From the IMG/VR virus record IMGVR_UViG_3300045988_140275, positions 1 to 32,000 of that record: a stretch of 32,000 nt of DNA, one strand, 5' to 3'. The position numbers were made by a program, and so were the translations under genes. This document shows, piece by piece, positions 2,728-25,835 of this stretch; position 1 is the stretch's first letter, and every line of letters begins with the position of its first letter. The notes under the pieces were generated by a model that saw nothing but the letters and a program-made list of their open reading frames with translations, searched no databases and had not been told where the DNA came from. Source of the DNA: a virus.

Positions 2728-2756
2728 GGGATAGTCGAAAGGCTATCCCTATTTTT
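2728..2756 (+). terminator. Rho-independent terminator
   Basis: The stem is GGGATAG (2728-2734) / CTATCCC (2743-2749), followed by TATTTTT. Confidence 0.6.
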
Positions 2757-2774
2757 AATAGGAGGATAAAAGAA

Positions 2775-3677: not shown

Positions 3678-3702
3678 GGCCGTTAAATGCGGTCTTTTAT
3701 TT
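3678..3702 (+). terminator. Weak hairpin terminator after the 3195..3677 gene
   Basis: GGCCG (3678-3682) pairs with CGGTC (3690-3694), including one G-T pair, and is followed by TTTTATTTT. Confidence 0.4.
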
Positions 3703-3735
3703 TGTACAGTGTACAAACGATTTAAATACTATCAT
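3699..3735 (+). promoter_or_regulatory. Palindrome-containing late promoter-like element (prophage A copy)
   Basis: ATTTTGTACAGTGTACAAA (3699-3717) contains the perfect palindrome TTGTACA-G-TGTACAA. TATCAT (3730-3735) follows after exactly 12 nt. The identical 19-mer and spacing occur at 25220-25256 in prophage B. Confidence 0.5.
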
Positions 3736-3756
3736 TAGGATAGGAGGTATTTGTAA

Positions 3757-3978
3757 ATGAAAAAATATAGTAAAGAATGGTGGATTCAATATGGCTATTA
3801 TGCAAGTATTAGAGCATTGAAGACAATTGCTCAAACTGCTGTTGGTGTTATTGGAGCATCTGCATTATTGGAAGCCGTTGATTGGCGAGTTGTAATTTCG
3901 TCAGCGGTTTTGTCAGGCATCGTCTCGTTGCTGACTAGTATTGGCGGATTACCTGAAATTAGTGTACCGGAGGAATAA
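3757..3978 (+). CDS. Holin
   Basis: The protein is 73 aa with two hydrophobic helices (LKTIAQTAVGVIGASALL and VVISSAVLSGIVSLLTSIGGL). The SD AGGAGG lies upstream. It sits directly before the endolysin. Confidence 0.8.
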   Translation: MKKYSKEWWIQYGYYASIRALKTIAQTAVGVIGASALLEAVDWRVVISSAVLSGIVSLLTSIGGLPEISVPEE

Positions 3979-3980
3979 TA

Positions 3981-4094
3981 ATGAATGATGAAGAAAAAGT
4001 AGTAGATTATGAGAATCTATCAGAAGAAGCAAAAGAAGAATTAAGCAATGGCAAGGAAGAAGGTGTAGATGAAGAATGTCATATTCCGGATTAG
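3981..4094 (+). CDS. Possible 37-aa highly acidic peptide between holin and endolysin
   Basis: The sequence is MNDEEKVVDYENLSEEAKEELSNGKEEGVDEECHIPD. GGAGG lies 7 nt upstream of the ATG. It overlaps the endolysin start by 19 nt and is below the track cutoff. Confidence 0.35.
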   Translation: MNDEEKVVDYENLSEEAKEELSNGKEEGVDEECHIPD

Positions 4095-5152: not shown

Positions 5153-5174
5153 AATAAAAAATATAAAAAATTGT

Positions 5175-5203
5175 TTGACATAATATAGTTTATACTGTAT
5201 TAT
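5175..5203 (+). promoter_or_regulatory. Consensus sigma-A-type promoter at the extreme end of prophage A, reading towards the tRNAs
   Basis: TTGACA (5175-5180), a 17-nt spacer and TATTAT (5198-5203). No ORF follows; the next genes are the tRNA-Asp/tRNA-Gly pair about 150 nt downstream. Confidence 0.6.
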
Positions 5204-5321
5204 CTTTCTTGCGGAAGCAGTGAGGTACATTTTGGGGTACAAAACAACAAAGTGCTATCAAAACACGTAGATAACGATGTAAATAACATCAAATATCAAT
5301 AGATATGAGGTATTTATATAA

Positions 5322-5340
5322 TCCCCTCATCTGCTCCATT
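5322..5340 (+). repeat. att core copy (partial tRNA-Gly 3' end), putative attR of prophage A
   Basis: TCCCCTCATCTGCTCCATT is identical to 5493-5511, the T-arm 3' half, acceptor 3' strand and CCA of the tRNA-Gly. Confidence 0.75.
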
Positions 5341-5354
5341 TAAAATTAAATATT

Positions 5355-5430
5355 GGTCCAGTGGTGTAGTGGTTAACATGCCTCCCTGTCACGGAGGAGA
5401 TCGTGGGTTCGAGTCCCATCTGGACCGCCA
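5355..5430 (+). tRNA. tRNA-Asp (anticodon GTC)
   Basis: A manual cloverleaf fits: acceptor GGTCCAG/CTGGACC, D stem GTGT/ACAT, anticodon stem CCTCC/GGAGG with loop CTGTCAC, T stem GTGGG/CCCAT with loop TTCGAGT, and an encoded CCA. Confidence 0.93.
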
Positions 5431-5435
5431 TTCAT

Positions 5436-5509
5436 GCAGATGTAGTTCAATGGTAGAACACAGCCTTGCCAAGGCTGATACGGGGGTTCAATTCCCCTCA
5501 TCTGCTCCA
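5436..5509 (+). tRNA. tRNA-Gly (anticodon GCC)
   Basis: A manual cloverleaf fits: acceptor GCAGATG/CATCTGC, D stem GTTC/GAAC, anticodon stem CAGCC/GGCTG with loop TTGCCAA, T stem GGGGG/CCCCT with loop TTCAATT, and an encoded CCA. Confidence 0.93.
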
Positions 5510-5637: not shown

Positions 5638-6735
5638 ATGGCAGTGGAATTAGATAAGAAGACAGGAAAATATATGTTTGCCGGAAAAATATATAAAGAT
5701 GGTAAATGTATAAAGAGATATCGTAAGCGTGGTTTTGATTCTAAATGGGAAGCGCAAAAAGCTGAGGTTGAATTCAGGAAAGATTTCTTTATGCTTCCAT
5801 CAGACATGAATTTTGACAGACTGTATAAAGCTTTTAAAGAATATAATAAAAAGTATGTAAAAGAATCAACACTAAAATCAGATGAATATTTGTATAATGT
5901 TCTTTCTAAGGAAATGAAAGATATTGATTTTCTAGATAAAAGACAAATGCAAAAATTGATCAACAAATTTGATGAGAAATATTCAAAGGCATATGTATCA
6001 AGAATATATTTCTTTTTAAATAAGCTATATAAATTTGGTGTTACTTCTGAATACATCCAATCAAATCCAATGACATATGTGAAACGAGATCTTAGATTGA
6101 ACGAAAGAAAAGAAGAAATGACAATATGGCAGCAATATGATTTTGATTTGTTTATTGAAGAAGTAGATGAACAAATGATGAAATGCTTTTATTCTGTTTT
6201 ATTCTATATGGGATTACGAAAAGGTGAAGCAATGGCCCTACAATGGAAGGACATTGATTTTAGAAAACAGACGATAGATATTAACAAAACATATAGATAC
6301 AAAGAGAAAGATCCTAATAAATGGCTTACACCACCAAAAACAAATAATAGCTATAGAACTATCACAATGCCTAATACATTGTCTAAAATGCTTCGAGAAT
6401 GGTTTTTAGAATGTTCTAAATGGGATGATTTCACAAAAGACAAATTTGTGTTTGGATATTATAAACCAATATCACCTCAGACAGTACAAAGAAGATTTGA
6501 TGATGCATATAATAAGGCAAAAGAAAAAGATGATGGATTGCCTAAAATAAGAATTCATGATTTTAGACATTCACACGCATCATTTCTAATTAATAACATG
6601 GCAGGAGCTGGATTCTCAGATTTTGATATAGCCAAACGCTTAGGAGATACGGTTGAAACATTGCACAATACATATGCACACTGGTTTGATACAAAAGACA
6701 AGAGCATTGTAGATATGATGAATAAGTTGTTATAA
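5638..6735 (+). CDS. int: Tyrosine integrase
   Basis: Catalytic motifs are present: GLRKGEAMAL (Arg), IRIHDFRHSHASFLI (H-x-x-R) and LGDTVETLHNTYAHW (His/Tyr). It lies next to the tRNA att core. Confidence 0.92.
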   Translation: MAVELDKKTGKYMFAGKIYKDGKCIKRYRKRGFDSKWEAQKAEVEFRKDFFMLPSDMNFDRLYKAFKEYNKKYVKESTLKSDEYLYNVLSKEMKDIDFLDKRQMQKLINKFDEKYSKAYVSRIYFFLNKLYKFGVTSEYIQSNPMTYVKRDLRLNERKEEMTIWQQYDFDLFIEEVDEQMMKCFYSVLFYMGLRKGEAMALQWKDIDFRKQTIDINKTYRYKEKDPNKWLTPPKTNNSYRTITMPNTLSKMLREWFLECSKWDDFTKDKFVFGYYKPISPQTVQRRFDDAYNKAKEKDDGLPKIRIHDFRHSHASFLINNMAGAGFSDFDIAKRLGDTVETLHNTYAHWFDTKDKSIVDMMNKLL

Positions 6736-9824: not shown

Positions 9825-10226
9825 CTATTTGTTGTTCTTTTCTTTTTCTCTTTTAGCTAGTTCCCTGACAACTATTGATTGCAAATAATCTGCAACTTGC
9901 TTTTTTATATCGGGTGGTGCTTCTAGGTATCCTCGAACAAGCCATTTATCTTCTGGTTTTAATCCATAATCTTCGATTAGTTGATCTATCTTTGAATCAG
10001 GTATAGAAATGAACATATCGTCTCCAATACCTTCAGTTAACCATACATAGTCAACGTTGAATTCTCGACATATAGAATTGATGGTTTGACTTGATGGGTT
10101 GGTAGTTCCTTTTTCAATGTTATTGATTGAACCTTTTGAGATACCTATTTGTTTACCAAATTTTTCCATACTCAAATTTAAATGTTTGCGTATTTTATAT
10201 ATTCTCGACCCTATATGTTCTTCCAC
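9825..10226 (-). CDS. CI-like repressor (XRE-family HTH)
   Basis: The HTH is IYKIRKHLNLSMEKFGKQIGISKGSINNIEKG. The track start (GTG 10235) lies inside the SD AAGAGGTG; the GTG at 10226 has 6-nt spacing and is preferred. It is divergent from the early operon. Confidence 0.85.
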   Translation of the reverse strand: MEEHIGSRIYKIRKHLNLSMEKFGKQIGISKGSINNIEKGTTNPSSQTINSICREFNVDYVWLTEGIGDDMFISIPDSKIDQLIEDYGLKPEDKWLVRGYLEAPPDIKKQVADYLQSIVVRELAKREKEKNNK

Positions 10227-10271
10227 GATTTTCACCTCTTAACTGCTTACACTGTGATTATACATTAAAAA

Positions 10272-10361
10272 GTATGTCGAGTATACAAAAAAACAAATTA
10301 TTTGAATAATTTAAAGTTGACATAGTATGTTACAAATACTTATAATGTATGTGTAACATAC
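10272..10361. promoter_or_regulatory. Immunity switch: three 15-bp operators plus divergent promoters
   Basis: The operators GTATGTCGAGTATAC (10272-10286), GTATGTTACAAATAC (10325-10339) and GTATGTGTAACATAC (10347-10361) share GTATGT-N5-ATAC. The rightward promoter is TTGACA (10317-10322), 18 nt, TATAAT (10341-10346). The leftward extended -10 TGTATAAT lies on the minus strand at 10257-10264. Confidence 0.7.
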
Positions 10362-10388
10362 AAAAAGTATTTTAAAAGGAGGGATGTA

Positions 10389-11639: not shown

Positions 11640-12539
11640 ATGACTAAGGATGAGTTACAAACAAAAATTGACGGGTTTATTGAAGAAGAAACAGCGGATG
11701 AGAAAAGTAAGAATACCATTCGTAAATACAAGCATGTTGCTACTTTGTTTGTTAACTCATTGCCTGATGGTGAAATTACAAAATCCGATATAGTTGGTGT
11801 TAAAGATAAACTGCTGCATGATTATAAAATCAGTACAGTAAACAACTATATTGTGATCATTAATAAATTTATTAAATATAGCGAAATCATTGATTCAGAT
11901 GATGATTTTAATTTTCTTAAGCTAAAGAAATATTATTCAAAGAATTTATTGAAGAACGTAAGAGTCCAGAAAGATGATTCTTTGGATGATATTTTAGAAC
12001 CTAATGAATTTCAAAGGCTATTGAAAAAAGCCCGAGAAATTAATCGTATTGACTTATACGAGATCATGAAGGTGTTTGGGTATACGGGCATTCGTTTGAG
12101 TGAATTACAGTTCTTCACTGTAGAAGCAGTAACGGATGACAATGTGTATGTTATGAACAAAGGAAAAGGTAGAGGAATCATTCTACGTTCAGACTTGCGC
12201 AGAGAGCTCCTTAAATACTGCAAGGACAACAAAATTGAAGAAGGGTGTATATTTACATCTTCTGATAAGAAAAGTCCTGTAAACGCTCGTGTGTTGTCTA
12301 GAGACTTAAAGATGATTGCTGGTAAATGCAGAGGGATTAAGCTTGGTAAAGTACATCCTCACGCATTCAGACATTTGTTTGCGATTCAGTATTTGATGCA
12401 GAATGGTGAAAATGCGATTGCAGAACTAGCGGATATTCTTGGACATTCTAGTTTAGAAACTACAAGAATCTATGTTCGCACAACACGGAAAATGAAAAAG
12501 CAGAATCTTGAATCATTGAGTTATGCAAAAAGGAAGTAG
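11640..12539 (+). CDS. Second tyrosine recombinase, XerC/XerD-like
   Basis: It is 299 aa with an N-terminal SAM-like core-binding region. Motifs are GIRLSEL (Arg), HPHAFRHLFA (H-x-x-R) and LGHSSLETTRIYV (His...Tyr). It is translationally coupled (TAATATG) into the early operon. Confidence 0.9.
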   Translation: MTKDELQTKIDGFIEEETADEKSKNTIRKYKHVATLFVNSLPDGEITKSDIVGVKDKLLHDYKISTVNNYIVIINKFIKYSEIIDSDDDFNFLKLKKYYSKNLLKNVRVQKDDSLDDILEPNEFQRLLKKAREINRIDLYEIMKVFGYTGIRLSELQFFTVEAVTDDNVYVMNKGKGRGIILRSDLRRELLKYCKDNKIEEGCIFTSSDKKSPVNARVLSRDLKMIAGKCRGIKLGKVHPHAFRHLFAIQYLMQNGENAIAELADILGHSSLETTRIYVRTTRKMKKQNLESLSYAKRK

Positions 12540-12991: not shown

Positions 12992-13792
12992 ATGAAACAT
13001 AGTTTTGATGCAGAAATTGCGAATGAATATGGAGTTGAAATAGCTATCATGTTCGATATGTTTTGTTTTTGGATCAGCAAGAACGAAGCAAATGATTATA
13101 ACTTTAAGGAGGGGAGGTATTGGACGTTCAATACATATGAAGGATTGCATAAAATGTTCCCTTATTGGAATGTTCAAAAGATAAAAAGAATCTTAAATAA
13201 AATGGTTGAACTGGGCTTGTTGGTCAAGGGAAACTATAACGAAAATCCATGGAATCATACAACTTGGTATGCGTTTGGAGAAGTAGGGCAAAAGTTAAAA
13301 AATGCTTTATCTATCGATTGGTCAAAAGTGACTAATCGAACGGTCGAAAATGGCAATTGTAGAATAGTCAAAAATGACCAATGTACAATGGTCAAAAATG
13401 ACCAATCTAAGACAGTTATATACACAGTTAGTAACACAGTTAATAAAAGAAATATAAAAGAAAGTTCCGACGACACTGATTTATCAGCATCAGAAACAAT
13501 CCCTTATGTTGAAATTATTGACTACTTGAATTCTAAATGTTCAAAGCATTACAAACATAGCAATCGAATTGCTAGAGAGAAGATTCATGCTAGATGGAAT
13601 GAGGGATTCAGATTAGAAGACTTTAAGCTTGTGATTGATGTTAAAGCTTCTGAATGGGTAAACGATACAGAGATGAACAAGTATTTAAGACCTGACACGT
13701 TGTTTGGATCTAAGTTTGAAATTTATCTGAACAGTGTAGCACCTAAACAAAAAACAAATAATTTTGTGATCACGAAAGGAATGAAGATGTAA
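12992..13792 (+). CDS. Replisome organiser / replication initiator with a conserved phage C-terminal domain
   Basis: It has an N-terminal winged-helix-like region. The C-terminal IPYVEIIDYLNSKCSKHYKHSN..AREKIHARWNEGFRLEDFKLVIDVK..W...MNKYLRPDTLFGSKFEIYLN matches the 'phage conserved C-terminus' domain of DnaD-like organisers. It contains iterons. Confidence 0.75.
   Translation: MKHSFDAEIANEYGVEIAIMFDMFCFWISKNEANDYNFKEGRYWTFNTYEGLHKMFPYWNVQKIKRILNKMVELGLLVKGNYNENPWNHTTWYAFGEVGQKLKNALSIDWSKVTNRTVENGNCRIVKNDQCTMVKNDQSKTVIYTVSNTVNKRNIKESSDDTDLSASETIPYVEIIDYLNSKCSKHYKHSNRIAREKIHARWNEGFRLEDFKLVIDVKASEWVNDTEMNKYLRPDTLFGSKFEIYLNSVAPKQKTNNFVITKGMKM
13320..13406 (+). repeat. Four tandem 22-24-bp iterons inside the organiser gene (putative ori)
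   Basis: GGTCAAAAGTGACTAAT (13320), GGTCGAAAATGGCAATT (13342), AGTCAAAAATGACCAAT (13366) and GGTCAAAAATGACCAAT (13390). The periods are 22, 24 and 24 bp. Confidence 0.7.
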
Positions 13793-14586
13793 TGCAGTCA
13801 GTTAGTGAAATAATCCAAAAACAAAATGATGCGAACAATGAGAAATATCTTAAAAGCAAACATTGCCAAAGCAATTGTGATAAATGCATGGCAGCAGGTG
13901 CATGTGGTATTTGGGAAAAGCCAGCGTATTATGACGGGAAATACCTGGTAGCTGCAACAAAGGTATTTTGTTCAAAAAGAAATGATTGTGAAAAATTATC
14001 AAGCTATCGCAGCGAATGGATTGAGAAGAACAAAAAGAACAGTGGCTTAAAAGATCTGTTGAATAAACGAATCAATGATTTCGTTGCATCTGATCCGTGG
14101 CAGGAAGCAATCAAAAAAATGGCAGTGAATTACATCCAGGATTGTAAAAACAATTTTGCAGAACATACTCCTTGCAATTGGCTGATGTTTTTAGGACAGA
14201 GCGGATGTGGTAAAACACATCTATGTTCAGGAATCAGTAATTGGCTGTTAGAACAAAATAAACGTGTTCTGTACGTCAGATACATTGAGTTAAGCAATTC
14301 TATTAGCAACTTTGATTATTCACTTCTAGAACGTGCTAAACACGCTCAAATCTTGTATCTAGATGACTTGTTTAAATCTAGTGCCAATCGGTTGGATGAT
14401 AAAGCAATCTTTGATTTGATTGATTATCGCTATAACAACAATATGCAGACGATCATATCCTGCGAAAGAACAAGCCAGGAAATGATTGATATAAATGAAG
14501 CGGTTATTGGACGAATTGTTGAAAAGTGCAATGGTTTCTTCTTTGAAATTGAGAAAGAGCCTGGAAAGAATTACAGGTTGAACTGA
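13792..14586 (+). CDS. DnaC/IstB-like AAA+ helicase loader
   Basis: Walker A is GQSGCGKTHL and Walker B is ILYLDDLF. The N-terminal region is Cys-rich. TAATG couples it to the organiser gene. Confidence 0.75.
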   Translation: MQSVSEIIQKQNDANNEKYLKSKHCQSNCDKCMAAGACGIWEKPAYYDGKYLVAATKVFCSKRNDCEKLSSYRSEWIEKNKKNSGLKDLLNKRINDFVASDPWQEAIKKMAVNYIQDCKNNFAEHTPCNWLMFLGQSGCGKTHLCSGISNWLLEQNKRVLYVRYIELSNSISNFDYSLLERAKHAQILYLDDLFKSSANRLDDKAIFDLIDYRYNNNMQTIISCERTSQEMIDINEAVIGRIVEKCNGFFFEIEKEPGKNYRLN

Positions 14587-18722: not shown

Positions 18723-19190
18723 ATGAGTAAAACGGATTATGAAGAATATGTAGATGTTCAGGTGGATACATTAATTAAAAAACTTGAAATGTTCAAGATC
18801 TATGAAAGAAAGTTTAAATCGTTGGATGGAATCTTAAAGGATTTGGAGGTTCGCAAAAAAGAATTTTCAGATCCAAAGTCACCATCATTTGAACAAAGAC
18901 TAGATTCAAAGAAAAACAAGGACATTACAAATGATGTTCTTGTAAAGTTTATTTCAAAAGAAAAAACACTTGAAGATGATAAGAATCTAATCTTCGGAAA
19001 GATGAGAGAAATTGAAACAATTATTGACCTTATTCCGGATGATGATATTCGTTTATATATGAAACGTCATTATATCAACGGAGAGTCATTTGAGAAGCTT
19101 TCAGGAGAAAAGTTCTGTAGCAGAATGAAAATGTATTACGCAATGAAAAAAGAGCTTAAAAAGCTCGTTATAGGGGATTTAAGTAAATAA
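18723..19190 (+). CDS. Putative late-gene transcriptional activator (sigma region-4-like, ArpU/RinA-type position)
   Basis: The C-terminal LIPDDDIRLYMKRHYINGESFEKLSGEKFCSRMKMYYAMKKELKKL resembles a region-4 HTH. It sits at the end of the early/middle region, as in many Firmicutes siphoviruses. Confidence 0.5.
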   Translation: MSKTDYEEYVDVQVDTLIKKLEMFKIYERKFKSLDGILKDLEVRKKEFSDPKSPSFEQRLDSKKNKDITNDVLVKFISKEKTLEDDKNLIFGKMREIETIIDLIPDDDIRLYMKRHYINGESFEKLSGEKFCSRMKMYYAMKKELKKLVIGDLSK

Positions 19191-19203
19191 GAGAGGACGA
19201 ACA

Positions 19204-19473
19204 ATGCAGAAAGTAATCAGATCATATATTTTTGATGGGAAAAGTTTTGAAGAATTGCAAAAAGCGTTAGATGAAGGCTATGTTGTTGTTATGGCAAATA
19301 AGGTTGGAAAATGTGATGATGCTATTGAATACATTCTTGAAAATAAAGACAAAGAAATCTCGATTGATACTATTGTTAAAGGATTAAGAGTGTATGCAAC
19401 AACAAAAACGGATTTGTTTAAGGCAGGAGTTTTACAAGCGGCAAAGTTGATTGAAACAGGTGAAGTAAGATGA
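19204..19473 (+). CDS. Hypothetical protein
   Basis: Track ORF with the SD GAGAGGA upstream. Confidence 0.5.
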   Translation: MQKVIRSYIFDGKSFEELQKALDEGYVVVMANKVGKCDDAIEYILENKDKEISIDTIVKGLRVYATTKTDLFKAGVLQAAKLIETGEVR

Positions 19474-19540
19474 GATTAATTGCATAAATACGTGGTTGAA
19501 AAATTCATAAAGTTTTTATTTTAGAAAAGTGTTACAAAGT

Positions 19541-19560
19541 AGCCTATTTACTAGGCTTTT
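19541..19560 (+). terminator. Weak hairpin terminator
   Basis: AGCCTA (19541-19546) / TAGGCT (19552-19557), followed by TTT. Confidence 0.35.
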
Positions 19561-19619
19561 AAAAGGTTTGTGGTTAGTCTGATAATATATAGTTATCGGA
19601 CATAGAAAAGAGGAATGAA

Positions 19620-19895
19620 ATGAATAAAATATACAAATTATTAATGGTTGGAATGATTGGCATTTCCTTGTTTGGATGTGCTTCTATGGATCGTTTTGGC
19701 ACTGATGTTAAGTCAGATTTGAATGGCGGATTGAATAGAATAATTAATGTGTATACAGCAGATGGAAAAATTATAGCAAGCTATGAAGGTAGAATTGATA
19801 TTGAAATAAATGATGGTGGATATGTAAAATTTGATTATGATGGAAAAAGATATGTTTATTATAATTGTTTTGTAGAAACGATTGCAGATAAATAG
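19620..19895 (+). CDS. Small lipoprotein
   Basis: It has a signal peptide with the lipobox LFGC (MNKIYKLLMVGMIGISLFGCAS). It is preceded by a hairpin and the imperfect inverted repeat GTCTGATAA/TTATCGGAC (19577-19601). Confidence 0.75.
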   Translation: MNKIYKLLMVGMIGISLFGCASMDRFGTDVKSDLNGGLNRIINVYTADGKIIASYEGRIDIEINDGGYVKFDYDGKRYVYYNCFVETIADK

Positions 19896-19905
19896 GAGTG
19901 ATAAT

Positions 19906-20478
19906 GTGGAAGATTTCATAAAAGATGTTTTACTAGCGTTTGTTGCAGCTGGTGGATGTGGATATTTAAATTATTACGTTTTAACATGCACAAATGTGAT
20001 TGAAGAACAAGACCGAGCAGATAAAGAAAGATTGTATTTGATGATCTTATCCTTGTTTAATATTCTTGTTTGCTTCTTCTTTAGTGATTATTTGAAATGG
20101 AATATTTATAAAAGTGTTTTGATTACATTTTTATTAACATTAATAAGTTCGTTTACTGTACATGCTCATGTTATTAAGCTTTTTAGAACATTAGTTAATT
20201 TGATTAGAAAAGGCAAAGGATTGTCTGAAATGACTTTTGGAACTATTCAGGAAGATGTTTTTGAAAGTGATAACATGACAATTGGATATTTCTATACTAG
20301 AGAAGGAAGTTTTATTGCGTGTGGATATATTGGAATGCATTCAGAAAGAACTGGTGAATTTACTATAGCACCAAGAAAAAGTGTATCTGAGAAAAGTTTT
20401 TCAGAAGCTTGTGCATTGCCAGGAGCAAAAGTTTTTATTAATGATGAAATGAAAATAGTCACCATCGAACAACGATAG
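19906..20478 (+). CDS. Membrane protein with a soluble C-terminal domain
   Basis: This is the in-frame GTG at 19906 of track ORF 19882..20478, with AGGAG 7 nt upstream. It has three hydrophobic helices followed by a soluble domain of about 90 aa. Confidence 0.6.
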   Translation: MEDFIKDVLLAFVAAGGCGYLNYYVLTCTNVIEEQDRADKERLYLMILSLFNILVCFFFSDYLKWNIYKSVLITFLLTLISSFTVHAHVIKLFRTLVNLIRKGKGLSEMTFGTIQEDVFESDNMTIGYFYTREGSFIACGYIGMHSERTGEFTIAPRKSVSEKSFSEACALPGAKVFINDEMKIVTIEQR

Positions 20479-20645
20479 TGACTATGGAGGTTATTTTCCG
20501 CCTTCTGATGGTATTTCTTTCTTGACTGTGCCTTTAGTTCTAGATTGAACACCATCATTACTTTTTTCATTTTCTGTCATTTTGTTATCATCCACGATAA
20601 TTATACAGAAATAAGTTTATTAGAAAAGTTTAAGGAGTAAAGAAA

Positions 20646-20999
20646 ATGAAATGTAAATTACCAAAGTTTTTAACAGAAAAACATATAAATATAGGTGATG
20701 AACTTAATAAGTTTTTTATGATCAATAATACACAAAGTTTATTTGTACAATACAAAAATCATGTTGTATGTGTTTATATGGCAGATGAAAAGTTTATTAG
20801 GTGTAATTATGATAAGAATGGTATACTCGTTATTAAGCATTATATTTGTGAACCGCAATTCAAAAGTTTATATAGAAAGTTTTTAGATAATGAAATTGAT
20901 TGCTTAAACTATGAAGACGTAATGAATGGCTGCAATAAGTTTTATCTAAATTCAGATGAAGAATATACAAAGTTTTTAAGAGCGTTGCTTGATATGTAG
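20646..20999 (+). CDS. Hypothetical protein, paralogue 1
   Basis: Track ORF with the SD AAGGAG. LFVQYKNHVVCVY...QFKSLYRKFLDNEIDC aligns with VFVRYDNVQISVV...KFSRLLEKFFDGSILC of the next ORF. Confidence 0.6.
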   Translation: MKCKLPKFLTEKHINIGDELNKFFMINNTQSLFVQYKNHVVCVYMADEKFIRCNYDKNGILVIKHYICEPQFKSLYRKFLDNEIDCLNYEDVMNGCNKFYLNSDEEYTKFLRALLDM

Positions 21000-21020
21000 A
21001 AAGTTTTTAGGAGTGATGAA

Positions 21021-21305
21021 ATGGACGAAAATAAGTTTTCTTATAAAGAAGTTTTTGTGAGATATGATAATGTACAAATTAGTGTTGTTTGTTCTAAAAT
21101 GGTTGAAAAAGTTTTTGAATATAATGCACATGATGATGAAGATGTGTCTGTGAACTATGTTTATTATGTTAAGAAAGAAAAGTTTTCTCGGTTGTTGGAA
21201 AAGTTTTTTGATGGTTCGATTCTATGCAAGCATGAAAAAGGATCTCAAAAGTTTTTTCCAACGTCTCAAGTACAATTAGAAAAAAGTTTTTCTAATCCTG
21301 GATAA
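21021..21305 (+). CDS. Hypothetical protein, paralogue 2
   Basis: Track ORF with the SD AGGAGTG. It is similar to the 20646 ORF, including the upstream TAGAAAGTTT..AGGAGT context. Confidence 0.6.
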   Translation: MDENKFSYKEVFVRYDNVQISVVCSKMVEKVFEYNAHDDEDVSVNYVYYVKKEKFSRLLEKFFDGSILCKHEKGSQKFFPTSQVQLEKSFSNPG

Positions 21306-21346
21306 ATAAGTTTTTCAAAAGAAAGTTTTTCGGATATAATGAATAC

Positions 21347-21907
21347 ATGAATGATTATATAAGTTTTCTATGCACATTATTAAATATAAAGATTCCAAAA
21401 GTTTTCTTTAAAGCAAATGATAAGGTTTATGATCTTAAACATAAACCAGTCAATAAAGAACTTTTTCAAGTAAAAGATACAAGCATATGCACATCATATC
21501 CAAAAGAGAATGTAATTTGTGTAAACCTGAATACATCCATAATAGATACTAGTGTAGTTTATATATATCTTGCGCATGAAATAAGGCATTTATATCAATA
21601 TTCATGTGTATATAATAAGAATCAAAAAGTATTTTCTATGGATGAGAGAAGTGTATCTATATGGAAAAAGGAACTTGAAAGTTATAAGGATTCAAGCAGC
21701 AAACACTATGAGAATCAGGAAATAGAAAAAGATGCAAACTTGTTTGCAAACTTTATAGCTATAGTGATATTTAAAAGAGTTTTGGATATAAAAGAAATTG
21801 ACAAAAAAGAATATGAGTTTAAAACAAAACTTTTTATGAACTTTTTCGCATCGAATCCGGTTAAAAAGCAGCTGATCCAGAAGCAAATCAAAAAAATGAA
21901 AGTATAA
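21347..21907 (+). CDS. Putative HExxH zinc metallopeptidase (ImmA/IrrE-like motif)
   Basis: VVYIYLAHEIRHLYQY contains HExxH in a hydrophobic helix context. There is no obvious SD. The family assignment is tentative. Confidence 0.45.
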   Translation: MNDYISFLCTLLNIKIPKVFFKANDKVYDLKHKPVNKELFQVKDTSICTSYPKENVICVNLNTSIIDTSVVYIYLAHEIRHLYQYSCVYNKNQKVFSMDERSVSIWKKELESYKDSSSKHYENQEIEKDANLFANFIAIVIFKRVLDIKEIDKKEYEFKTKLFMNFFASNPVKKQLIQKQIKKMKV

Positions 21908-21934
21908 AAAAAGGACTTTTTTACAAGTCCTTTT
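21906..21934. terminator. Bidirectional terminator between convergent blocks
   Basis: AAGGACTT (21911-21918) / AAGTCCTT (21925-21932), flanked by an upstream A-run and a downstream T-run. Confidence 0.75.
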
Positions 21935-22235
21935 CAATTTGTTCGAGTTCTCTTTTTGCATGGTTGAAGCGCTTTTTTTCACGTTTGCTTTTTTCTTTTT
22001 GATCCCATTTTTCTAAATGGATTTTTGCATATCTAAAAAGCCTAACATATAGATAATTTTTTGTGTAAGAATCAAAATTATAAATAGATCCATTCATAAA
22101 ATGCAAATCAACATACTTTGCATATTTTCCAATTGCAATATAACTGATATATCCATTACTAAATAAACCAGGTTCACGGCTCATATATTGCAATAAATTA
22201 CATAAATTTTTTATATCGTTAACAGTTTTCTTCAT
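21921..22235 (-). CDS. Hypothetical protein (last gene of the ArdA operon)
   Basis: Track ORF with the SD AGGAGGTAAGGAAA upstream on the minus strand. Confidence 0.55.
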   Translation of the reverse strand: MKKTVNDIKNLCNLLQYMSREPGLFSNGYISYIAIGKYAKYVDLHFMNGSIYNFDSYTKNYLYVRLFRYAKIHLEKWDQKEKSKREKKRFNHAKRELEQIEKDL

Positions 22236-22247
22236 TTTCCTTACCTC

Positions 22248-22826
22248 CTAAAATGGGAATTCAAAATCATCAATCATATTATTGATATTTTTTTGTTGTG
22301 CTGCTTTCTTCTTTTTTGGTGCAGCTTTTTCAATGCACATTTTTTCTATTTTACCATCACAATATATATAAGTATCCTGAAGCTTGTTTCTATTAAATAC
22401 GTCAATAGTTTTTGAAGTAGTGTTATAAGTTGCTAGCAAGCTTTTTGAGCCTGGTTTACAGATCTTAAAAAGATCCTTATTTAATATATCTATATAGCAT
22501 TTGTAAATTTTGAAGAAATAACAGATATCTTTTATTTCTTGAATATCTGGTGTATATAACTCTTTCTTTGCTTCAGTATTGAAAAACAATTGAATATCAT
22601 AATTGAAAAGCTTGTCAAGATCATGCGCTACAAACAACCTCAAGTCATTTGTTTGAGCAGCTGCATACATGCATTTATTATGATCGAACTTAAAACCATG
22701 ATTTTTTAAAATCTTTTCAGTTGAAACGCTTGGAGTTCCTAACGCTTCAACATAAATGTGCGGTTGTTTTCTTTCGTTTGTAACATAATAATTGAAATGA
22801 GTTCGTTCACGCTTCCACATTGTCAT
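22248..22826 (-). CDS. Hypothetical protein with an SSB-C-terminal-tip-like tail
   Basis: Track ORF. It ends ...KAAPKKKKAAQQKNINNMIDDFEFPF, a basic/Q-rich linker followed by an acidic-hydrophobic ...DD-F-E-F-P-F tip like the SSB D-D-D-[IL]-P-F tail. The N-terminal domain is not OB-fold-like by eye. Confidence 0.55.
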   Translation of the reverse strand: MTMWKRERTHFNYYVTNERKQPHIYVEALGTPSVSTEKILKNHGFKFDHNKCMYAAAQTNDLRLFVAHDLDKLFNYDIQLFFNTEAKKELYTPDIQEIKDICYFFKIYKCYIDILNKDLFKICKPGSKSLLATYNTTSKTIDVFNRNKLQDTYIYCDGKIEKMCIEKAAPKKKKAAQQKNINNMIDDFEFPF

Positions 22827-23052
22827 TTTTAAGCCCTCCTAAAATATCCAAAATACATAAAGTATTTACAAGTTGCCAAAGTTCACGCGGTTTGAGCATC
22901 CAAGCCACAACGTCAAGCCCATAATATAAGTTATATGAACCGTTTAAATGTTTAGTTATTGTGTAAGGTTTGCAGCTAGATCCATTTAGTTGATCCAACT
23001 TTTTTTCTACAAATTCAATATATTCTTTATTATTCATTTTTAAAACCTCCAT
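22807..23052 (-). CDS. Hypothetical protein
   Basis: Track ORF that overlaps its neighbours within the minus-strand operon. Confidence 0.5.
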   Translation of the reverse strand: MEVLKMNNKEYIEFVEKKLDQLNGSSCKPYTITKHLNGSYNLYYGLDVVAWMLKPRELWQLVNTLCILDILGGLKNDNVEA

Positions 23053-23312
23053 TCATTATCTTCAAAAATCTTTATAACAAGTGTATAAAGCTCATTGCTT
23101 ACATGTTTAGAATCGCTTAATAGTTGATCATAATAAATATTTTTTACTTTTTCACTATCAATATAAGCAAGATCATAAATGAATGATTCTATATGATCCA
23201 CTAAACATTCATATAAAAAGTCATACACGACAAAATCACCAGAAATAAGATCATTCATATATGATCTTATTCTTACATATTTATGCAATAATTTAATTTC
23301 TAAAAGTTCCAT
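23040..23312 (-). CDS. Hypothetical protein
   Basis: Track ORF with the SD GGAGGTTAAACA-ATG. Confidence 0.55.
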   Translation of the reverse strand: MELLEIKLLHKYVRIRSYMNDLISGDFVVYDFLYECLVDHIESFIYDLAYIDSEKVKNIYYDQLLSDSKHVSNELYTLVIKIFEDNEWRF

Positions 23313-23329
23313 TGTTTAACCTCCTGCAA

Positions 23330-23479
23330 TTAATAAATAAATGGGAGTATGATATTTAAAAGGCCCAATATTATACCCATGATCAATGTAGATGTGCACG
23401 CTGCTAAATATAATTTTAAAAATGCAAGTATGAGCACCTTGAAGGCGCTCATATTGTCAAGTTTTTTACGTGTTAGCAT
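23330..23479 (-). CDS. 49-aa membrane peptide
   Basis: The sequence is MLTRKKLDNMSAFKVLILAFLKLYLAACTSTLIMGIILGLLNIILPFIY. Its ATG overlaps the ArdA stop (ATGCTAA). It fills the gap and is below the track cutoff. Confidence 0.5.
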   Translation of the reverse strand: MLTRKKLDNMSAFKVLILAFLKLYLAACTSTLIMGIILGLLNIILPFIY

Positions 23480-23973
23480 GTGTAAATAACTCCGTTCGAA
23501 GTTTCACAATATCCATCATAGCCAAGATCACGCGCGAACGCTTTATAATCAAAATATCTTTGCGCAATTTCTGGGAGTTTATAACATTCTTCTACAATTT
23601 CATAAGCCACATCTTCCAACGTCATACCTTCGTAAAAAGTATAGTTTTCACTTTCTAAATATCTTAATGCATCCGTATAGCTGCATACTTCCATTAATGC
23701 AGTGAATTCACTTTCATTGTCTTCTAATGCTTCAGCCACTTCATTAATATCGTCAATGTTTGGATATTCACCAAATGCATCATACATATCAAACAATGAA
23801 CAATCATAATCAGTGATAAACCACTCTTCATACATTGTGTTTTCTTTCACTCCAATGCTTTCAAGTTCGCTTGTAAAATCATCCTCATCGATAGGGAAAT
23901 CAATCCATTTACCAACTAAACAACCCTCATTGTATTTACCTAAATTTGTAATATAAGCTTTCATTTCACACAT
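23473..23973 (-). CDS. ardA: Antirestriction protein ArdA
   Basis: MKAYITNLGKYNEGCLVGKWIDFPIDEDDF...YFDYKAFARDLGYDGYCETSNGVIY closely parallels Tn916 Orf18-type ArdA (YIANLGKYNEGELVG.W..FPID ... YIDYQAYGRDL). It is strongly acidic. The SD AAGGAGG is present. Confidence 0.9.
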   Translation of the reverse strand: MCEMKAYITNLGKYNEGCLVGKWIDFPIDEDDFTSELESIGVKENTMYEEWFITDYDCSLFDMYDAFGEYPNIDDINEVAEALEDNESEFTALMEVCSYTDALRYLESENYTFYEGMTLEDVAYEIVEECYKLPEIAQRYFDYKAFARDLGYDGYCETSNGVIYTC

Positions 23974-24076
23974 AATCTTTAACCTCCTTACTTTTCAATC
24001 ATTTTTTTTAAAAGATATGCATTGAATGCTAACGATAGTAATAACGCTATTTTTAGTAGTTCCATATTTTAAAACG

Positions 24077-24214
24077 TGGTATAATATAAGTACCTAAGTG
24101 ACTAAAATAAGTCACTTAGATATTTAGCAAGAAGCTTGAGGGCTTCACCAATTAAGAGCGTGTATATAATTTCGAACGTTTTGGATAGGTACGAAATCAT
24201 GCGCTCTTTTTTTT
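24077..24214 (+). ncRNA. Candidate antisense RNA opposite the 24102..24269 ORF
   Basis: A plus-strand extended -10 TGGTATAAT lies at 24077-24085. A plus-strand hairpin AAGAGCG (24154-24160) / CGCTCTT (24202-24208) is followed by six T (24209-14). There is no good -35, and the terminator loop is long. Confidence 0.3.
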
Positions 24215-24269
24215 CGCGCTTTTTTCTATCGCGACGTTTCATTGGTTTGCTACGTTTATACTTTGCCAC
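24102..24269 (-). CDS. Possible 55-aa protein: highly basic N-terminus plus amphipathic/hydrophobic C-terminus
   Basis: The GTG start has a strong SD (AAGGAGGTG, 5-nt spacer). The sequence is VAKYKRSKPMKRRDRKKREKKERMISYLSKTFEIIYTLLIGEALKLLAKYLSDLF. It is the first ORF after the 24341-24313 promoter. It is not in the track because of the GTG start. Confidence 0.45.
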   Translation of the reverse strand: MAKYKRSKPMKRRDRKKREKKERMISYLSKTFEIIYTLLIGEALKLLAKYLSDLF

Positions 24270-24312
24270 GTTTGCACCTCCTTTCGTGTGGCTTGTCTCT
24301 TAAGACGTTTAC

Positions 24313-24341
24313 ATAATAAAACGAACGTTTTACACTGTCAA
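24313..24341 (-). promoter_or_regulatory. Consensus promoter of the ArdA operon
   Basis: The minus strand reads TTGACA (24341-24336), 17 nt, TATTAT (24318-24313). The spacer contains CGAACGTTTT (24322-24331), which recurs at 24173-24182. Confidence 0.7.
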
Positions 24342-24425
24342 GTAAAAAATAAAATAAATGTTTGATTATTGAAAAATAATGTTTGATATTATAAAATAAA
24401 TATAGGACGGGAGGCATGCAGTTAT

Positions 24426-24632
24426 ATGAAAGAAAATCAAATTATAGCCGCGCTTGCTTATGCTCATAAAAGCCAGCAAGATATCGCGGATGCGTTTGGA
24501 TGCACCAAGCAAAATGTTAGCACTAGAATCAAACGCGAAAAATTCACAGATGAAGAACTTGAAAAAATGGCGCAAGCGATAGGCGCAAAATACAAATGCT
24601 ATTTTGAATTTGAAGACGGCACTAAAATATAA
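24426..24632 (+). CDS. Small HTH DNA-binding protein divergent from the ArdA operon
   Basis: KSQQDIADAFGCTKQNVSTRIKREKF is a helix-turn-helix. The SD is GGGAGG. A strong terminator follows. Confidence 0.65.
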   Translation: MKENQIIAALAYAHKSQQDIADAFGCTKQNVSTRIKREKFTDEELEKMAQAIGAKYKCYFEFEDGTKI

Positions 24633-24647
24633 AACCGTCTTTTTTTA
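24614..24647 (+). terminator. Rho-independent terminator
   Basis: AGACGG (24614-24619) / CCGTCT (24635-24640) plus TTTTTT. Confidence 0.75.
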
Positions 24648-24775
24648 TGCTCATTTTTTCAAAAAGCTTTTTGTTTTGCAAAGGTGCTTGCAAGTGCCTA
24701 TTTAAAAGGCTTTTCATTGTGTTTGCGTTTGGTCTTATAACATATAGTTAACAGACTAGTAATATATACATGTGT

Positions 24776-24799
24776 GGACGGGTTGACCGTCCTTTTTTT
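24776..24799 (+). terminator. Strong orphan rho-independent terminator (no ORF upstream)
   Basis: GGACGG (24776-24781), GTTGA loop and CCGTCC (24787-24792), followed by seven T. Confidence 0.75.
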
Positions 24800-24899
24800 G
24801 GTGGGGTTTGCTTCAGCTCCAGGAAGACAAGTGACACGCTTAAACATATGGAACGGGTGCGCATGATTCAATGTATTGGAGTGATGCAAGACTTATTGC

Positions 24900-25220
24900 A
24901 TATATAAGAACGTGCGTGCGTGTTCTATTAATGTAGTCGTGGCTATGTTATGAAACAACGCTTTCAACAATGCATGTTGAAAGATGTTTCAACACAATAA
25001 TAAATATATGAATGTCATATGATTGAAGCCGTGAGCGGTGCGATGTGGTGGTAGCTGCATGATTCAAATTTTGAACCCTGAAAGCGCCCTGGCATGGATC
25101 AGATCAGCATAGACCGCCCCTATATTTCAAAAAGTTTTTTGCGCTTTGGGGAACGGCGTGGGGAGTTAAAAAAAACCGGGTCATGAGTGCATGAGAGGGG
25201 GTAAAATCTGAATTTCTTCA
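24900..25220. other. Putative cos/packaging-recognition region
   Basis: This is non-coding and locally GC-richer DNA immediately upstream of HNH-TerS-TerL. It contains hairpins AGAAC..GTTCT (24906-24925) and CTTTCAAC..GTTGAAAG (24961-24983), TTTCAAC repeats and G/C blocks (GACCGCCCC, GGGGAACGGCGTGGGGAG). The exact cos ends cannot be determined from sequence. Confidence 0.4.
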
Positions 25221-25256
25221 TTTTGTACAGTGTACAAAGAAAAACCGTGATATTCT
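25220..25256 (+). promoter_or_regulatory. Palindrome-containing late promoter-like element (prophage B copy)
   Basis: ATTTTGTACAGTGTACAAA (25220-25238), 12 nt, then TATTCT (25251-25256). The 19-mer and spacing are the same as at 3699-3735. Confidence 0.5.
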
Positions 25257-25336
25257 GTAGTCGTGAAGATTGGAAAACATCTTCTAGAACAAACAAGGTA
25301 GTTCTTGGATTGTTTCATTATTTCGTGCCCGTTGAA

Positions 25337-25366
25337 AAAGACCTGTGGAAACATGGGTCTTTTTCA
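25337..25366 (+). terminator. Hairpin plus T-run in the leader between the late promoter-like element and the HNH gene
   Basis: AAAGACC (25337-25343) / GGTCTTT (25356-25362), followed by TTC. Confidence 0.45.
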
Positions 25367-25448
25367 TATCACTGCATTCAAAGTGTTTACTGTTTAGATT
25401 TCCGTCCTTTCCTTTAAATCTGTTAACTAAAACTTTGAATGTAGCGAT

Positions 25449-25835
25449 ATGAAAAAATATTATGGTTCAGAAGCAACAAAAACAGGTGCTAGAAATTATG
25501 CTAGAAAATTTTACTCAAGCAAGGCTTGGGAAAAGAAAAGCAAAGCGTATAGAAAGGCACATCCACTTTGTGAAAGATGTTTGAAAAAAGGTATCTATAC
25601 CAGGTCGACTTGCGTGCACCACAAAGTGCACATTGACCAGGACAACTATAGAGATGTACACATTCTATTTGGCGATTCTAATTTGGAAGCGTTGTGTGAC
25701 TTATGTCATGCAGAAGAACATTCCAAACGTAAACCATCTTTTGAATTTGATGAAAACGGAATGCTTATAGGATGTGGAAGGGAGGATGATGAATGCAAAA
25801 AGGAGCATGGAAAAAAAGAATCAATTCACAACTAG
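25449..25835 (+). CDS. Terminase-associated HNH endonuclease
   Basis: CERCLKKG...CVHHKVHI...NLEALCDLCHAEEH is an HNH core. It lies directly upstream of TerS/TerL, as in HK97-like cos phages. Confidence 0.85.
   Translation: MKKYYGSEATKTGARNYARKFYSSKAWEKKSKAYRKAHPLCERCLKKGIYTRSTCVHHKVHIDQDNYRDVHILFGDSNLEALCDLCHAEEHSKRKPSFEFDENGMLIGCGREDDECKKEHGKKESIHN

Follow-up and report, generated by a model that had tools for sequence, protein, structure and literature searches.

Late activators of the Ltr/Alt type in Gram-positive siphophages (RinA, ArpU, LtrA, LtrB, which corresponds to DUF1492, LtrC, and Alt of TP901-1) recognize direct repeats of about 7-9 nt in a single orientation, and their canonical site has 2-4 repeats within about 60-100 bp directly upstream of the late promoter, in known cases at -107 to -32 of the late start site. 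RinA, ArpU and LtrC, as determined by EMSA and mutagenesis, have binding sites of 2-4 direct repeats, each about 7 nt long, which come after the regulator's own gene and precede terS (PMC3753634, PMC13123087). DUF1492 proteins form the Ltr family III, of which a member has been shown only to activate terS (PMC3753634, PMC13123087).

Stoperators of cluster A mycobacteriophages, which are bound by L5 gp71, are asymmetric 13-mers with the same sequence as the immunity operators. Each phage has more than 20 of them, their orientation is strictly correlated with the direction of transcription, and a monomeric protein reads them in an orientation-dependent manner. Chi (RecBCD/AddAB), KOPS (FtsK) and lambda cosQ are short asymmetric motifs whose orientation matters to the translocating enzyme that reads them. 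The G-rich Chi and KOPS sites occur throughout the genome with a replication-oriented skew, whereas cosQ is a single site. P1 incA and E. coli datA are noncoding, regularly spaced clusters of one protein-binding sequence that bind the replication initiator and soak up a regulator, and P1 incA, like plasmid centromeres, has many direct repeats of one short sequence. Among RNA-level elements, the start-associated sequences (SAS) of cluster K mycobacteriophages are conserved sense-strand 13-mers repeated near gene starts and found only just upstream of start codons, and CsrB-type sponges present many copies of a short motif in the hairpin loops of one noncoding RNA. RNase Y-type endonucleases, such as the S. 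aureus and S. pyogenes enzymes, cleave after G in A/U-rich RNA.

The locus described here is part of an integrated prophage adjoining tRNA genes, and the window analysed is the whole stretch of 32,000 nucleotides (IMG/VR record IMGVR_UViG_3300045988_140275, positions 1 to 32,000). AAGTTT occurs 24 times on the + strand and not once on the - strand in the final 1 kb of the prophage early operon, spanning genes and the gaps between them. The features of this region are:

20394..21404, + strand: core array, 24 AAGTTT copies, kept in about 55 relatives
18810..20312, + strand: upstream tail of the enrichment zone, with single copies at 18810, 18945, 19242, 19510 and 20307
18723..19190, + strand: DUF1492 / LtrB-family late regulator gene (Pfam PF07374, phrog_36)
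19882..20478, + strand: phrog_4525 membrane-protein gene, with copies at 20307, 20394 and 20429 in its 3' end
20646..20999, + strand: ORF1, a 117-aa paralogue of ORF2 that belongs to no known family, with 8 motif copies in its gene
21021..21305, + strand: ORF2, 94 aa, with neither a known family nor a fold match, 7 copies at positions homologous to those of ORF1
21308..21340, + strand: promoter-like site TTTTCA-17-TATAAT, which overlaps the copies at 21308 and 21323
21347..21907, + strand: HExxH (DUF6782-like) gene, with 2 motif copies within its first 60 nt
21909..21935, bidirectional: terminator-like hairpin at which both the early rightward operon and the convergent - strand block come to an end

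The count of 24 and its coordinates agree exactly with those of the first-pass annotation of this DNA. The copies share the consensus aA(A/T)AAGTTT(T/a)(T/c), with a core of 8-9 nt, and are separated irregularly by 13-184 bp. Nineteen of them are coding (10, 4 and 5 in phases 0, +1 and +2) and five are intergenic, the latter as listed in the first-pass annotation, which gave the frames as 11, 4 and 4; the density is equal in coding and intergenic transcribed DNA, with one copy per 41-46 nt approximately. Elsewhere in the window the + strand has 17 copies and the - strand 15, where only about a dozen had been estimated, and the background outside the array is about 0.5-0.55 per kb on each strand. 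Enrichment had been thought to start at 20394, but a weaker + strand tail begins within the DUF1492 gene, which contains the copies at 18810 and 18945; the copy at 19510 is intergenic. The interval itself is free of reverse-strand copies, as had been noticed, yet three of them (21736, 21748 and 21827) adjoin it downstream, in the 3' half of the HExxH gene.

Several simple descriptions of the array are rejected. A tandem or protein-coding repeat is ruled out by the Tandem Repeats Finder result, which gives no tandem array, and by the presence of copies in three frames and in spacers. Helical phasing is rejected too, with no significant period and no 10.5-bp phasing, and so is a promoter array, because there is neither a -10-like element nor a conserved base outside motif positions -3 to +7. 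The array does not match the CI operators, the Rfam search gives no match in its region, none of 50,697 records of cultured phages matches the region in blastn, and a literature word search for the motif returned no relevant paper.

At the background of 0.55 per kb about 0.6 copies would be expected, against the 24 seen, and when all 6- to 8-mers are compared for how strongly they cluster within 1 kb, AAGTTT is the sole outlier. The codon-shuffling control proposed in the first-pass annotation was run with three null models, and the 19 observed coding copies are reached in 0 of 2000 runs of each: the same proteins written with the codon usage of the window have 3.85 +/- 1.73 coding copies (maximum 10), synonymous codons permuted in place give 9.1 +/- 1.9 (maximum 15), and shuffled codon order gives 2.1 +/- 1.3. 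Lys-Phe pairs are written AAG-TTT in 10/10 cases in the array and in 5/29 elsewhere. The comparison of homologues, which had also been proposed, shows that motif columns are 96-98% conserved in relatives versus 84-89%, third codon positions included, that the minor synonymous Lys codon is used in 1.9% versus 5.7%, and that motif columns are better conserved than flanks at synonymous sites. The paralogues ORF1 and ORF2, which are 32% identical, share the motif at seven homologous positions, 3-4 of them in different reading frames. It is thus well supported, because of the codon nulls, the conservation of motif columns and the paralogue positions shared in different frames, that selection acts on the nucleotide sequence and not on a protein repeat, which upholds the original proposal.

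The opposite reading, in which the array is a functionless by-product of Lys-Phe-rich paralogous proteins, local codon bias, duplication and gene conversion, could draw on the paralogy of ORF1, ORF2 and a third protein, ORF3, on the duplication of an ORF-plus-spacer unit, and on natural variants, where motif copies promote deletions and frameshifts. This reading is very improbable and is largely refuted, since the codon nulls never attain the observed count, identical nucleotides recur across three frames and spacers, and the synonymous sites of motif columns are more conserved than flanks. The motif is also kept between paralogues of 32% identity, while ORF3, which has lost most motif copies, retains the hydrophobic positions of the fold.

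Phage coding DNA is usually viewed as a protein code with a few compact intergenic regulatory sites. The array is a second, strand-specific code that overlies genes along about 1 kb, in all three frames, and that has survived the divergence of the paralogues and is present in more than 50 phages. For annotators this is a caution that an overlapping nucleic-acid signal can dominate codon choice in small phage ORFs, and for experiments it is a clean target, as synonymous recoding can remove the coding motif without protein change.

About 55 related phages carry 16-25 copies on the same strand, and the array is found in every relative recovered. The membrane-protein gene at 19882..20478 is a swappable module, with other genes in its place in some relatives, and the HExxH gene is missing from some. 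The + strand enrichment profile of 30 long relatives begins at the LtrB gene and climbs toward the array. The dN/dS values are 0.07 for the LtrB gene, about 0.5-0.6 for ORF1 and 0.23 for ORF2. When IMG/VR was scanned for loci with three AAAGTTTT copies close together, many chance matches came from AT-rich or giant-virus contigs and, among the matches listed, dense irregular arrays are confined to the array's own phage family. Two other matches, L195 and L107, are long tandem repeats of an ordinary kind in which AAGTTT occurs by coincidence.

As to the protein that may read the motif, the AlphaFold2 model of ORF2 (pLDDT 77) has no PDB match at E <= 0.001, so there is no sign that ORF1 or ORF2 are motif readers. 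Neither of them had a match in PADLOC, Pfam and PHROGs profile searches. CI, a 68-aa HTH protein encoded at 24426-24632 and the initiator each have other candidate sites, which are unlike the AAGTTT motif. For CI these are palindromes at 10265-10376, and for the HTH protein the sequence AATGTTTGAT, which is present twice; the palindromic repeats in the CI-Cro gap are of the GTATGT..ACATAC type. The product of 18723-19190, which had been listed merely as one DNA-binding candidate, belongs to the Ltr family: it matches PF07374 (DUF1492) with 22.7 bits against a cut-off of 21.5, and also phrog_36, so that its gene is now assigned to a late activator. It is located downstream of the replication genes. 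Two further features concern its possible target:

24640..25448, + strand: conserved noncoding region of 809 nt, taken to hold the late promoter and cos
25131..25139, + strand: isolated copy AAGTTTTTT, within this conserved noncoding region upstream of HNH-terS-terL

The core of the isolated copy, AGTTTTTT, is invariant in 42 unique relatives, both of its flanks being variable, and a near-copy, TTTCAAAAAGCTTTTTG, is present at 24657 in the same noncoding region. The 25131 copy, which is about 12 bp to the left of an invariant G-rich block (candidate cos site), had been missed in the first-pass annotation.

The best guess, which remains tentative, is that the array is a platform of putative sites for the phage's own late regulator LtrB. 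This assignment is made because regulators of this family bind short direct repeats that follow the gene encoding them, because the enrichment starts at the LtrB gene and because an invariant copy is found upstream of HNH-terS. The array would then consist of about 24 asymmetric recognition sites of 8-9 bp on the sense strand, written by selection regardless of frame or gene border, and LtrB, encoded 1.2 kb upstream, would read them on duplex DNA, with a titration or roadblock role. Bound LtrB molecules, all co-oriented, may hinder or stop transcription of the distal accessory genes, and the bound sites may buffer free LtrB. With such buffering, the late promoter region of HNH-terS, which has the single copy at 25131, would be activated only after LtrB surpasses the capacity of the platform, and the array could act as a timer or threshold. 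If LtrB does read the array, large binding platforms within genes are open to the late activators of Gram-positive phages, and a simple titration mechanism would time the early-to-late switch.

The comparison with Ltr/Alt sites supports this reading in part. The array has short direct repeats in one orientation, and the phage has one copy upstream of the packaging genes, but only this one. The canonical site, which is a compact block of 2-4 repeats near the ltr gene and the terS promoter, argues against LtrB, as the array has 24 copies over 1 kb, mostly within ORFs and in all frames, located 1.2-2.7 kb from ltrB and separated from the terS region by about 3.7 kb that include a convergent gene block. 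Pure titration would also leave the strict polarity unexplained, and the 25131 copy has a chance of occurrence of roughly 0.1 in 809 nt, in a region that is conserved anyway. Moreover, all copies are on the mRNA strand, which an RNA reader fits equally well.

A word-indexed search with LtrB recovers relatives of at least 75% identity only, an exhaustive HMMER search gives homologues at 22-53% identity, alignment-based scans of viral and metagenome contigs for diverged LtrB return the same family again, and tblastn for diverged homologues against the phage collection was negative with three queries. One relative has an LtrB that is 75% identical overall and nearly identical in its C-terminal region, and its motif is unchanged.

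It is possible, though doubtful, that AAAGUUUUU is read on RNA, towards the 3' end of the polycistronic early transcript, either as a multi-site protein platform or as sites of an RNase Y-type endonuclease, and, with the same degree of doubt, such sites would determine how stable the mRNA of the distal early genes is or how well it is translated. The copies all follow the sense strand of genes that point the same way, the coding and intergenic transcribed densities are alike, and the enriched zone is the distal part of one transcription unit and ends before its terminator. Three intergenic copies are shortly upstream of gene starts: two directly precede the ribosome-binding sites of ORF1 and ORF2, and one precedes the start of the HExxH gene. 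On the other hand, no RNA-binding domain is found among the phage ORFs scanned, and the adjacent - strand genes do not have the motif above background on their own sense strand. The 25131 copy falls outside the early transcript, and 24 cleavage sites would be heavily redundant. Unusual RNA folding of the array region is rejected, its predicted folding being ordinary (z = -0.40). The locus resembles SAS in its conserved short sense-strand motif repeated near gene starts, and CsrB-type sponges in having one RNA with many motif copies, but differs from both in that its copies are mostly within coding sequence.

A stoperator-like roadblock, bound by a factor other than LtrB such as a host protein or one encoded in the - strand block, is an unlikely explanation of the array, as is the associated proposal that asymmetric sites co-oriented with transcription keep RNA polymerase from crossing the distal early genes and entering the convergent block. 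The array does have more than 20 asymmetric sites co-oriented with transcription, as the L5-type stoperators have (PMC9283540), and it is placed directly before a convergent transcription junction. L5-type sites, however, share their sequence with immunity operators and are dispersed genome-wide in short intergenic gaps, whereas the array sites are 8-9-mers unrelated to the CI operators and crowded into 1 kb, where 19/24 overlap codons. The CI-Cro region of this phage has palindromic repeats, and no AAGTTT is found between 9616 and 11442.

Even less probable, and in fact close to negligible, is a replication origin, a copy-control iteron set or a partition centromere. Such elements have many direct repeats of one short sequence, as the array has, and the first-pass annotation suggested an iteron- or centromere-like site. 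The origin is unlikely because classical iterons (GGTCAAAAaTGaCcAAT, several copies) are found elsewhere, at 13319-13410, inside the DnaD-like initiator gene (12992-13792). Iterons lie at regular intervals inside the initiator gene or beside it, and the array, with irregular spacing and no helical phasing, does not. Centromeres (parS, parC or tubC) have tandem regular repeats and adjacent partition genes; the array has no such arrangement, and no ParA, ParM or TubZ gene was detected among the window ORFs scanned, which are a part of all its ORFs, so the centromere is unsupported. The integrated state of the prophage also speaks against both. The array resembles incA and datA as a cluster of one sequence that could soak up a regulator, but it differs from them in being mostly coding and irregularly spaced, and the likely origin iterons of this phage have a different sequence.

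A polar DNA signal for a machine that translocates along the genome relative to its cos end is also improbable, but it can be formulated in three versions. In the first, a terminase meets the array in the last 10% or so of the genome before the terminal cos and then the copy adjacent to cos, which would be cosQ-like; in the second, the motif is Chi-like and halts an exonuclease of the AddAB type coming in from the right end; in the third, injection stops, as in T5, after a first-entering segment that contains ArdA. HNH-terS-terL and the conserved noncoding region upstream indicate rightward cos packaging, and in the relatives the array is 3.4-5.4 kb to the left of the candidate cos, next to which the isolated copy has the same orientation. 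The + strand orientation is the one that a left-to-right motor reads 5'->3', and an exonuclease from the right end would meet the copies from the 3' side. Transcription of the block between the array and cos starts at the right end and runs inward, and the first gene of this block is an ArdA-like anti-restriction gene.

Against such a signal, the cos position is inferred only, because the contig ends are scattered, and orientation alone has a prior of 50%. Known Chi sites are G-rich, the rest of the phage has no skew (16 versus 15 copies), and the 13 sense versus 5 antisense copies in 9.9 kb of host DNA are compatible with G>C composition. We know of no precedent for a sequence array that slows a terminase and, to our knowledge, no local array of 24 copies of the Chi, KOPS or cosQ kind has been described, although these systems share with the array a short asymmetric motif and the phage has a matching copy beside the candidate cos. 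The stronger proposal, that the array and the cos-side copy are together a new polar signal that marks the approach of the genome end and is read by a DNA-translocating machine, is more improbable still. The reading would be directional along the duplex, involving neither a classical operator nor an RNA site, and would serve either a packaging terminase nearing the end of the genome or DNA entry that pauses after the first 4 kb or so, with the ArdA-type block, as in the two-step transfer of T5. If RNA or a translocating motor reads the array, it would represent a new signal class.

The related phages have Solobacterium-like hosts and come from human oral or gut samples. The promoter-like site at 21308..21340 is identical in L001; its -10 element stops 6 nt ahead of the ATG of the HExxH gene, whose start is without a Shine-Dalgarno sequence.

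The window is an integrated temperate siphophage. Among named relatives a Solobacterium sp. MAG is the closest, and a further assembly has the same integrase between host housekeeping genes and the same tRNA-Gly. The genes and sites used below are:

5355-5509: tRNA-Asp and tRNA-Gly
5638-6735: integrase
9825-10235, minus strand: CI-like repressor
12992-13792: DnaD-like initiator, within a long rightward early operon
13792-14586: DnaC-like loader
18723-19190: DUF1492 regulator (LtrB)
19204-21907: accessory genes
21909-21935: bidirectional terminator
21921-24269, minus strand: convergent block with an ArdA-like gene
24426-24632: 68-aa HTH gene
24640-25448: noncoding region of 809 nt
from 25449: HNH, terS, terL and portal genes

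Besides the integrase, the early operon carries a second tyrosine recombinase (11640-12539, 299 aa, XerC/D-like), which is kept in relatives. Left of the two tRNA genes, positions 1-5354 hold small phage-like ORFs and an endolysin-like gene (4076-5152), a place that is occupied in another assembly by the host genes ThrRS, SmpB and Pst, so the host of the window may carry a second phage-derived element beside the prophage.

The hexamer AAGTTT occurs 56 times in the window, 41 times on the plus strand and 15 on the minus strand, and 24 of the plus-strand copies, with none on the minus strand, lie in 20394..21404. This array covers the 3' end of a phrog_4525 membrane-protein gene, ORF1 (20646..20999, 117 aa), ORF2 (21021..21305, 94 aa) and the first 60 nt of the HExxH gene (DUF6782-like, 21347..21907). 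ORF1 and ORF2 are paralogues of no known family, and ORF2, modelled with AlphaFold2 (pLDDT 77), matches no solved structure. ORF1, ORF2 and HExxH are real genes, as supported by dN/dS values of about 0.5-0.6, 0.23 and 0.17-0.33, respectively. The copies align to a consensus of a-A-(A/T)-A-A-G-T-T-T-(T/a)-(T/c), with no information outside positions -3..+7, and follow each other at irregular distances of 13-184 bp, with no significant periodicity (3, 10.5 or other) and no repeats reported by Tandem Repeats Finder in the region. When all 6-, 7- and 8-mers of the window are compared, none except AAGTTT and its extensions is clustered in this manner. Nineteen copies are coding, in phases 0, +1 and +2 in 10, 4 and 5 cases, and five are intergenic. 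Density is equal in spacers (5 in 229 nt) and coding DNA (19 in 786 nt). The coordinates in the first-pass annotation are exact on recount, as is its total of 24 copies, all on the plus strand and none reversed within the interval; its five intergenic copies also stand, and its tally of coding phases is off by one.

The array is more than chance and is not a protein repeat. Three codon nulls, including the synonymous shuffle proposed in the first-pass annotation, were applied to the coding copies of the four protein segments with 2000 runs each, and the observed 19 copies are never attained. The expectation is 3.85 ± 1.73 copies (maximum 10) when segment proteins are kept and codons are drawn at window-wide usage, 9.1 ± 1.9 (maximum 15) when synonymous codons are permuted inside each segment, and 2.1 ± 1.3 (maximum 7) when codon order is shuffled. 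All ten Lys-Phe dipeptides of the array are AAG-TTT, as the same annotation had noticed for the in-phase copies, against 5 of 29 in the rest of the window, two of which are within the LtrB gene. Lys-Val-Phe in the array is AAA-GTT-TTY and Lys-Ser-Phe/Leu is AAA-AGT-TTW, so the same nine nucleotides recur in the other two frames.

The strongest single result is the match of motif positions between ORF1 and ORF2, which are 32% identical as proteins and carry the motif at seven homologous positions, with a different frame at three or four of them (ORF1 QSLF in phase 2 and ORF2 KEVF in phase 1; EKF in phase 0 and EKVF in phase 1; FKSL in phase 2 and EKFS in phase 0; KKF in phase 0 and EKVF or EKSF). 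ORF3, the third paralogue of relatives, retains hydrophobic I, L and Y at the motif positions with merely 1-3 copies, so the fold does not need the motif, which has outlived the surrounding protein similarity. The unreached nulls and the differing frames uphold the earlier proposal that selection acts on nucleotides rather than on a protein repeat; a neutral by-product is largely excluded and has very little probability. Motif copies are also recombinogenic, as a side effect: they are the deletion end points of natural variants P0065, P0068 and P0070, and the frameshifts of variants P0066 and P0072 fall at a copy.

The relatives retrieved are 57 IMG/VR loci, one genome contig and several ENA/Logan contigs. 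All region-spanning loci have 16-25 plus-strand and 0-2 minus-strand copies per 1.1 kb, compared with about 0.5-1.5 copies per kb on either strand beyond the array region. Each motif site of the window is present in 57-100% of the relatives (51 unique sequences), and gains are few, although these are close relatives, with LtrB identity of 75% or more, and conservation counts do not equal independent events; diverged LtrB homologues exist beyond them. Identity to the window is 96-98% at motif columns and 84-89% at other columns, or 0.963 and 0.844 at third codon positions alone. At Lys-conserved columns the minor synonymous codon is used in 1.9% of sequences at motif lysines and in 5.7% at other lysines, counts that are non-independent in related sequences. 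The homologue alignment suggested by the first-pass annotation finds the motif better kept than other columns at third codon positions. The locus is mosaic, with a variable upstream gene, ORF3 in about half of the phages and HExxH sometimes absent, and in all cases the array fills the final ~1-1.3 kb ahead of the convergent junction.

Over 30 long relatives, plus-strand enrichment starts within the DUF1492 gene, which has two conserved copies, runs at a low level for 1.5 kb past this start, reaches a maximum of 4.6 copies per 250 bp across ORF1 and ORF2 and stops within the 5' part of HExxH, on a background of about 0.1 per 250 bp. The effect does not reach all genes of the enriched zone, as the upstream lipoprotein gene has a Lys-Phe written AAA-TTT. 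HExxH also has three copies on the reverse strand in its 3' half; they code for Asn-Leu-Phe, Asn-Phe and Lys-Leu-Phe and may be incidental.

Several identities do not apply to the array. It is very probably not a replication origin, as the initiator gene has its own GGTCAAAAaTGaCcAAT-type classical iterons inside it (several, at 13319-13410), which are the probable phage origin, and the iteron- or centromere-like option of the first-pass annotation is largely excluded, with next to no probability left for an origin or centromere. CI operators are ruled out by the CI-Cro gap, which holds palindromes and has no AAGTTT, and a row of promoters by the lack of a -10 element at a fixed offset from the copies. 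One good promoter-like site does lie under the last two spacer copies. Its -10, a consensus TATAAT, stops 6 nt short of the HExxH ATG, and HExxH has no Shine-Dalgarno (21335-21349), which suggests a leaderless transcript with a putative -35 region covered by two motif copies. The array region has no match to Rfam families or to known defence or anti-defence genes and no unusual RNA folding (z = -0.40). Among the listed loci of an IMG/VR scan for three close copies, dense irregular arrays are found only in the array's own family.

The near-palindrome A4-G-T5 is centred on an invariant G, never C, so its reader is asymmetric. Candidates are a DNA binder, monomeric or head-to-tail, a protein that reads single strands or RNA, and a tracking enzyme. 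The DUF1492 protein is the sole phage regulator without an attributed site, and belongs to family III (LtrB) of the Ltr superfamily of late activators (PMC3753634). Tested members recognise 2-4 direct repeats of about 7 nt, which lie immediately distal to the activator's own gene, ahead of the terS promoter, and are necessary and sufficient for specificity (PMC3753634); in phage Phi13 and TP901-1 Alt such repeats are at -107..-32 (PMC13123087). The array resembles this region in its short direct repeat, single orientation, enrichment beginning at the ltr gene and conserved copy upstream of HNH-terS, but differs in copy number, sites within ORFs and distance from terS, and is therefore classed as an expanded, displaced Ltr-like repeat region and not as a canonical member.

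That conserved copy, AAGTTTTTT at 25131, stands out among the copies outside the operon. Around it is the 809-nt noncoding region, which has more G+C than the adjacent DNA and shares 85-93% identity along its whole length in more than 40 relatives. The core of the copy, AGTTTTTT, does not vary among 42 unique sequences, with both flanks variable, and a near-copy, TTTCAAAAAGCTTTTTG, is at 24657. About 12 bp to the right of the 25131 copy is an invariant G-rich block, GGGGAACGGCGTGGGGAGTTAAAAAAAACC (about 25152-25181), a candidate cos site, and the region is a candidate late-promoter leader upstream of HNH-terS-terL.

A high-capacity LtrB platform is the most likely mechanism, held tentatively, as we infer all of it that goes beyond the sequence facts. 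LtrB filling the array would shut down the distal early genes, and the platform would buffer unbound LtrB and so delay firing of the single-site late promoter region. Reading of the motif in RNA is possible, if doubtful, and accounts for the sense-strand polarity and the equal density in spacers, but is without a candidate reader and leaves the 25131 copy unexplained. A polar DNA signal tied to the cos end, for terminase approach, Chi-like protection or an injection stop, fits the orientation of the copies, the distance of about 3.4-5.4 kb to the candidate cos and the inward transcription of the ArdA block; it is unlikely, given that it has no known precedent and that the cos position is itself a candidate. 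A 9.9-kb sample of host DNA has 13 sense and 5 antisense AAGTTT. Still more improbable is a stoperator-like roadblock bound by a factor other than LtrB, whose polarity logic matches that of L5 (PMC9283540), as the copies lack both operator identity and dispersal.

Other small elements lie near these sites. The membrane-protein gene and ORF1 are separated by a 167-nt gap, without a counterpart in relative L001, whose upstream gene differs. In it is a small minus-strand ORF (20455-20595; 34 aa from GTG, 29 aa from ATG) directly followed by a terminator-like hairpin with a 13-bp stem. An alternative-frame ORF of 47-49 codons within ORF1 (20743-20886, plus strand), open in many relatives despite AT-richness, may be coding or due to chance. 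ORF1 and ORF2 share a frame, one TAG and seven codons apart (20997-21023); they are fused as a single 229-aa ORF in the diverged relative L210 (11443-12132), and in many relatives the ORF2 frame is open upstream past the ORF1 stop. Fusion products may arise by read-through or frameshift. A 28-nt inverted repeat (25360-25387 and 25429-25456, 89% complementary, 41-nt loop), kept in relatives, would pair across the HNH start codon (25449), has only sub-threshold miRNA-like hairpin matches in Rfam and may regulate how the first packaging gene is translated. Adjoining the 68-aa HTH gene, 24270-24425 holds a divergent promoter-like pair (24341-24313, minus strand; 24369-24397, plus strand) with two direct repeats, AATGTTTGAT, which looks like a small switch for the minus-strand block with the ArdA-like gene (23473-23973).
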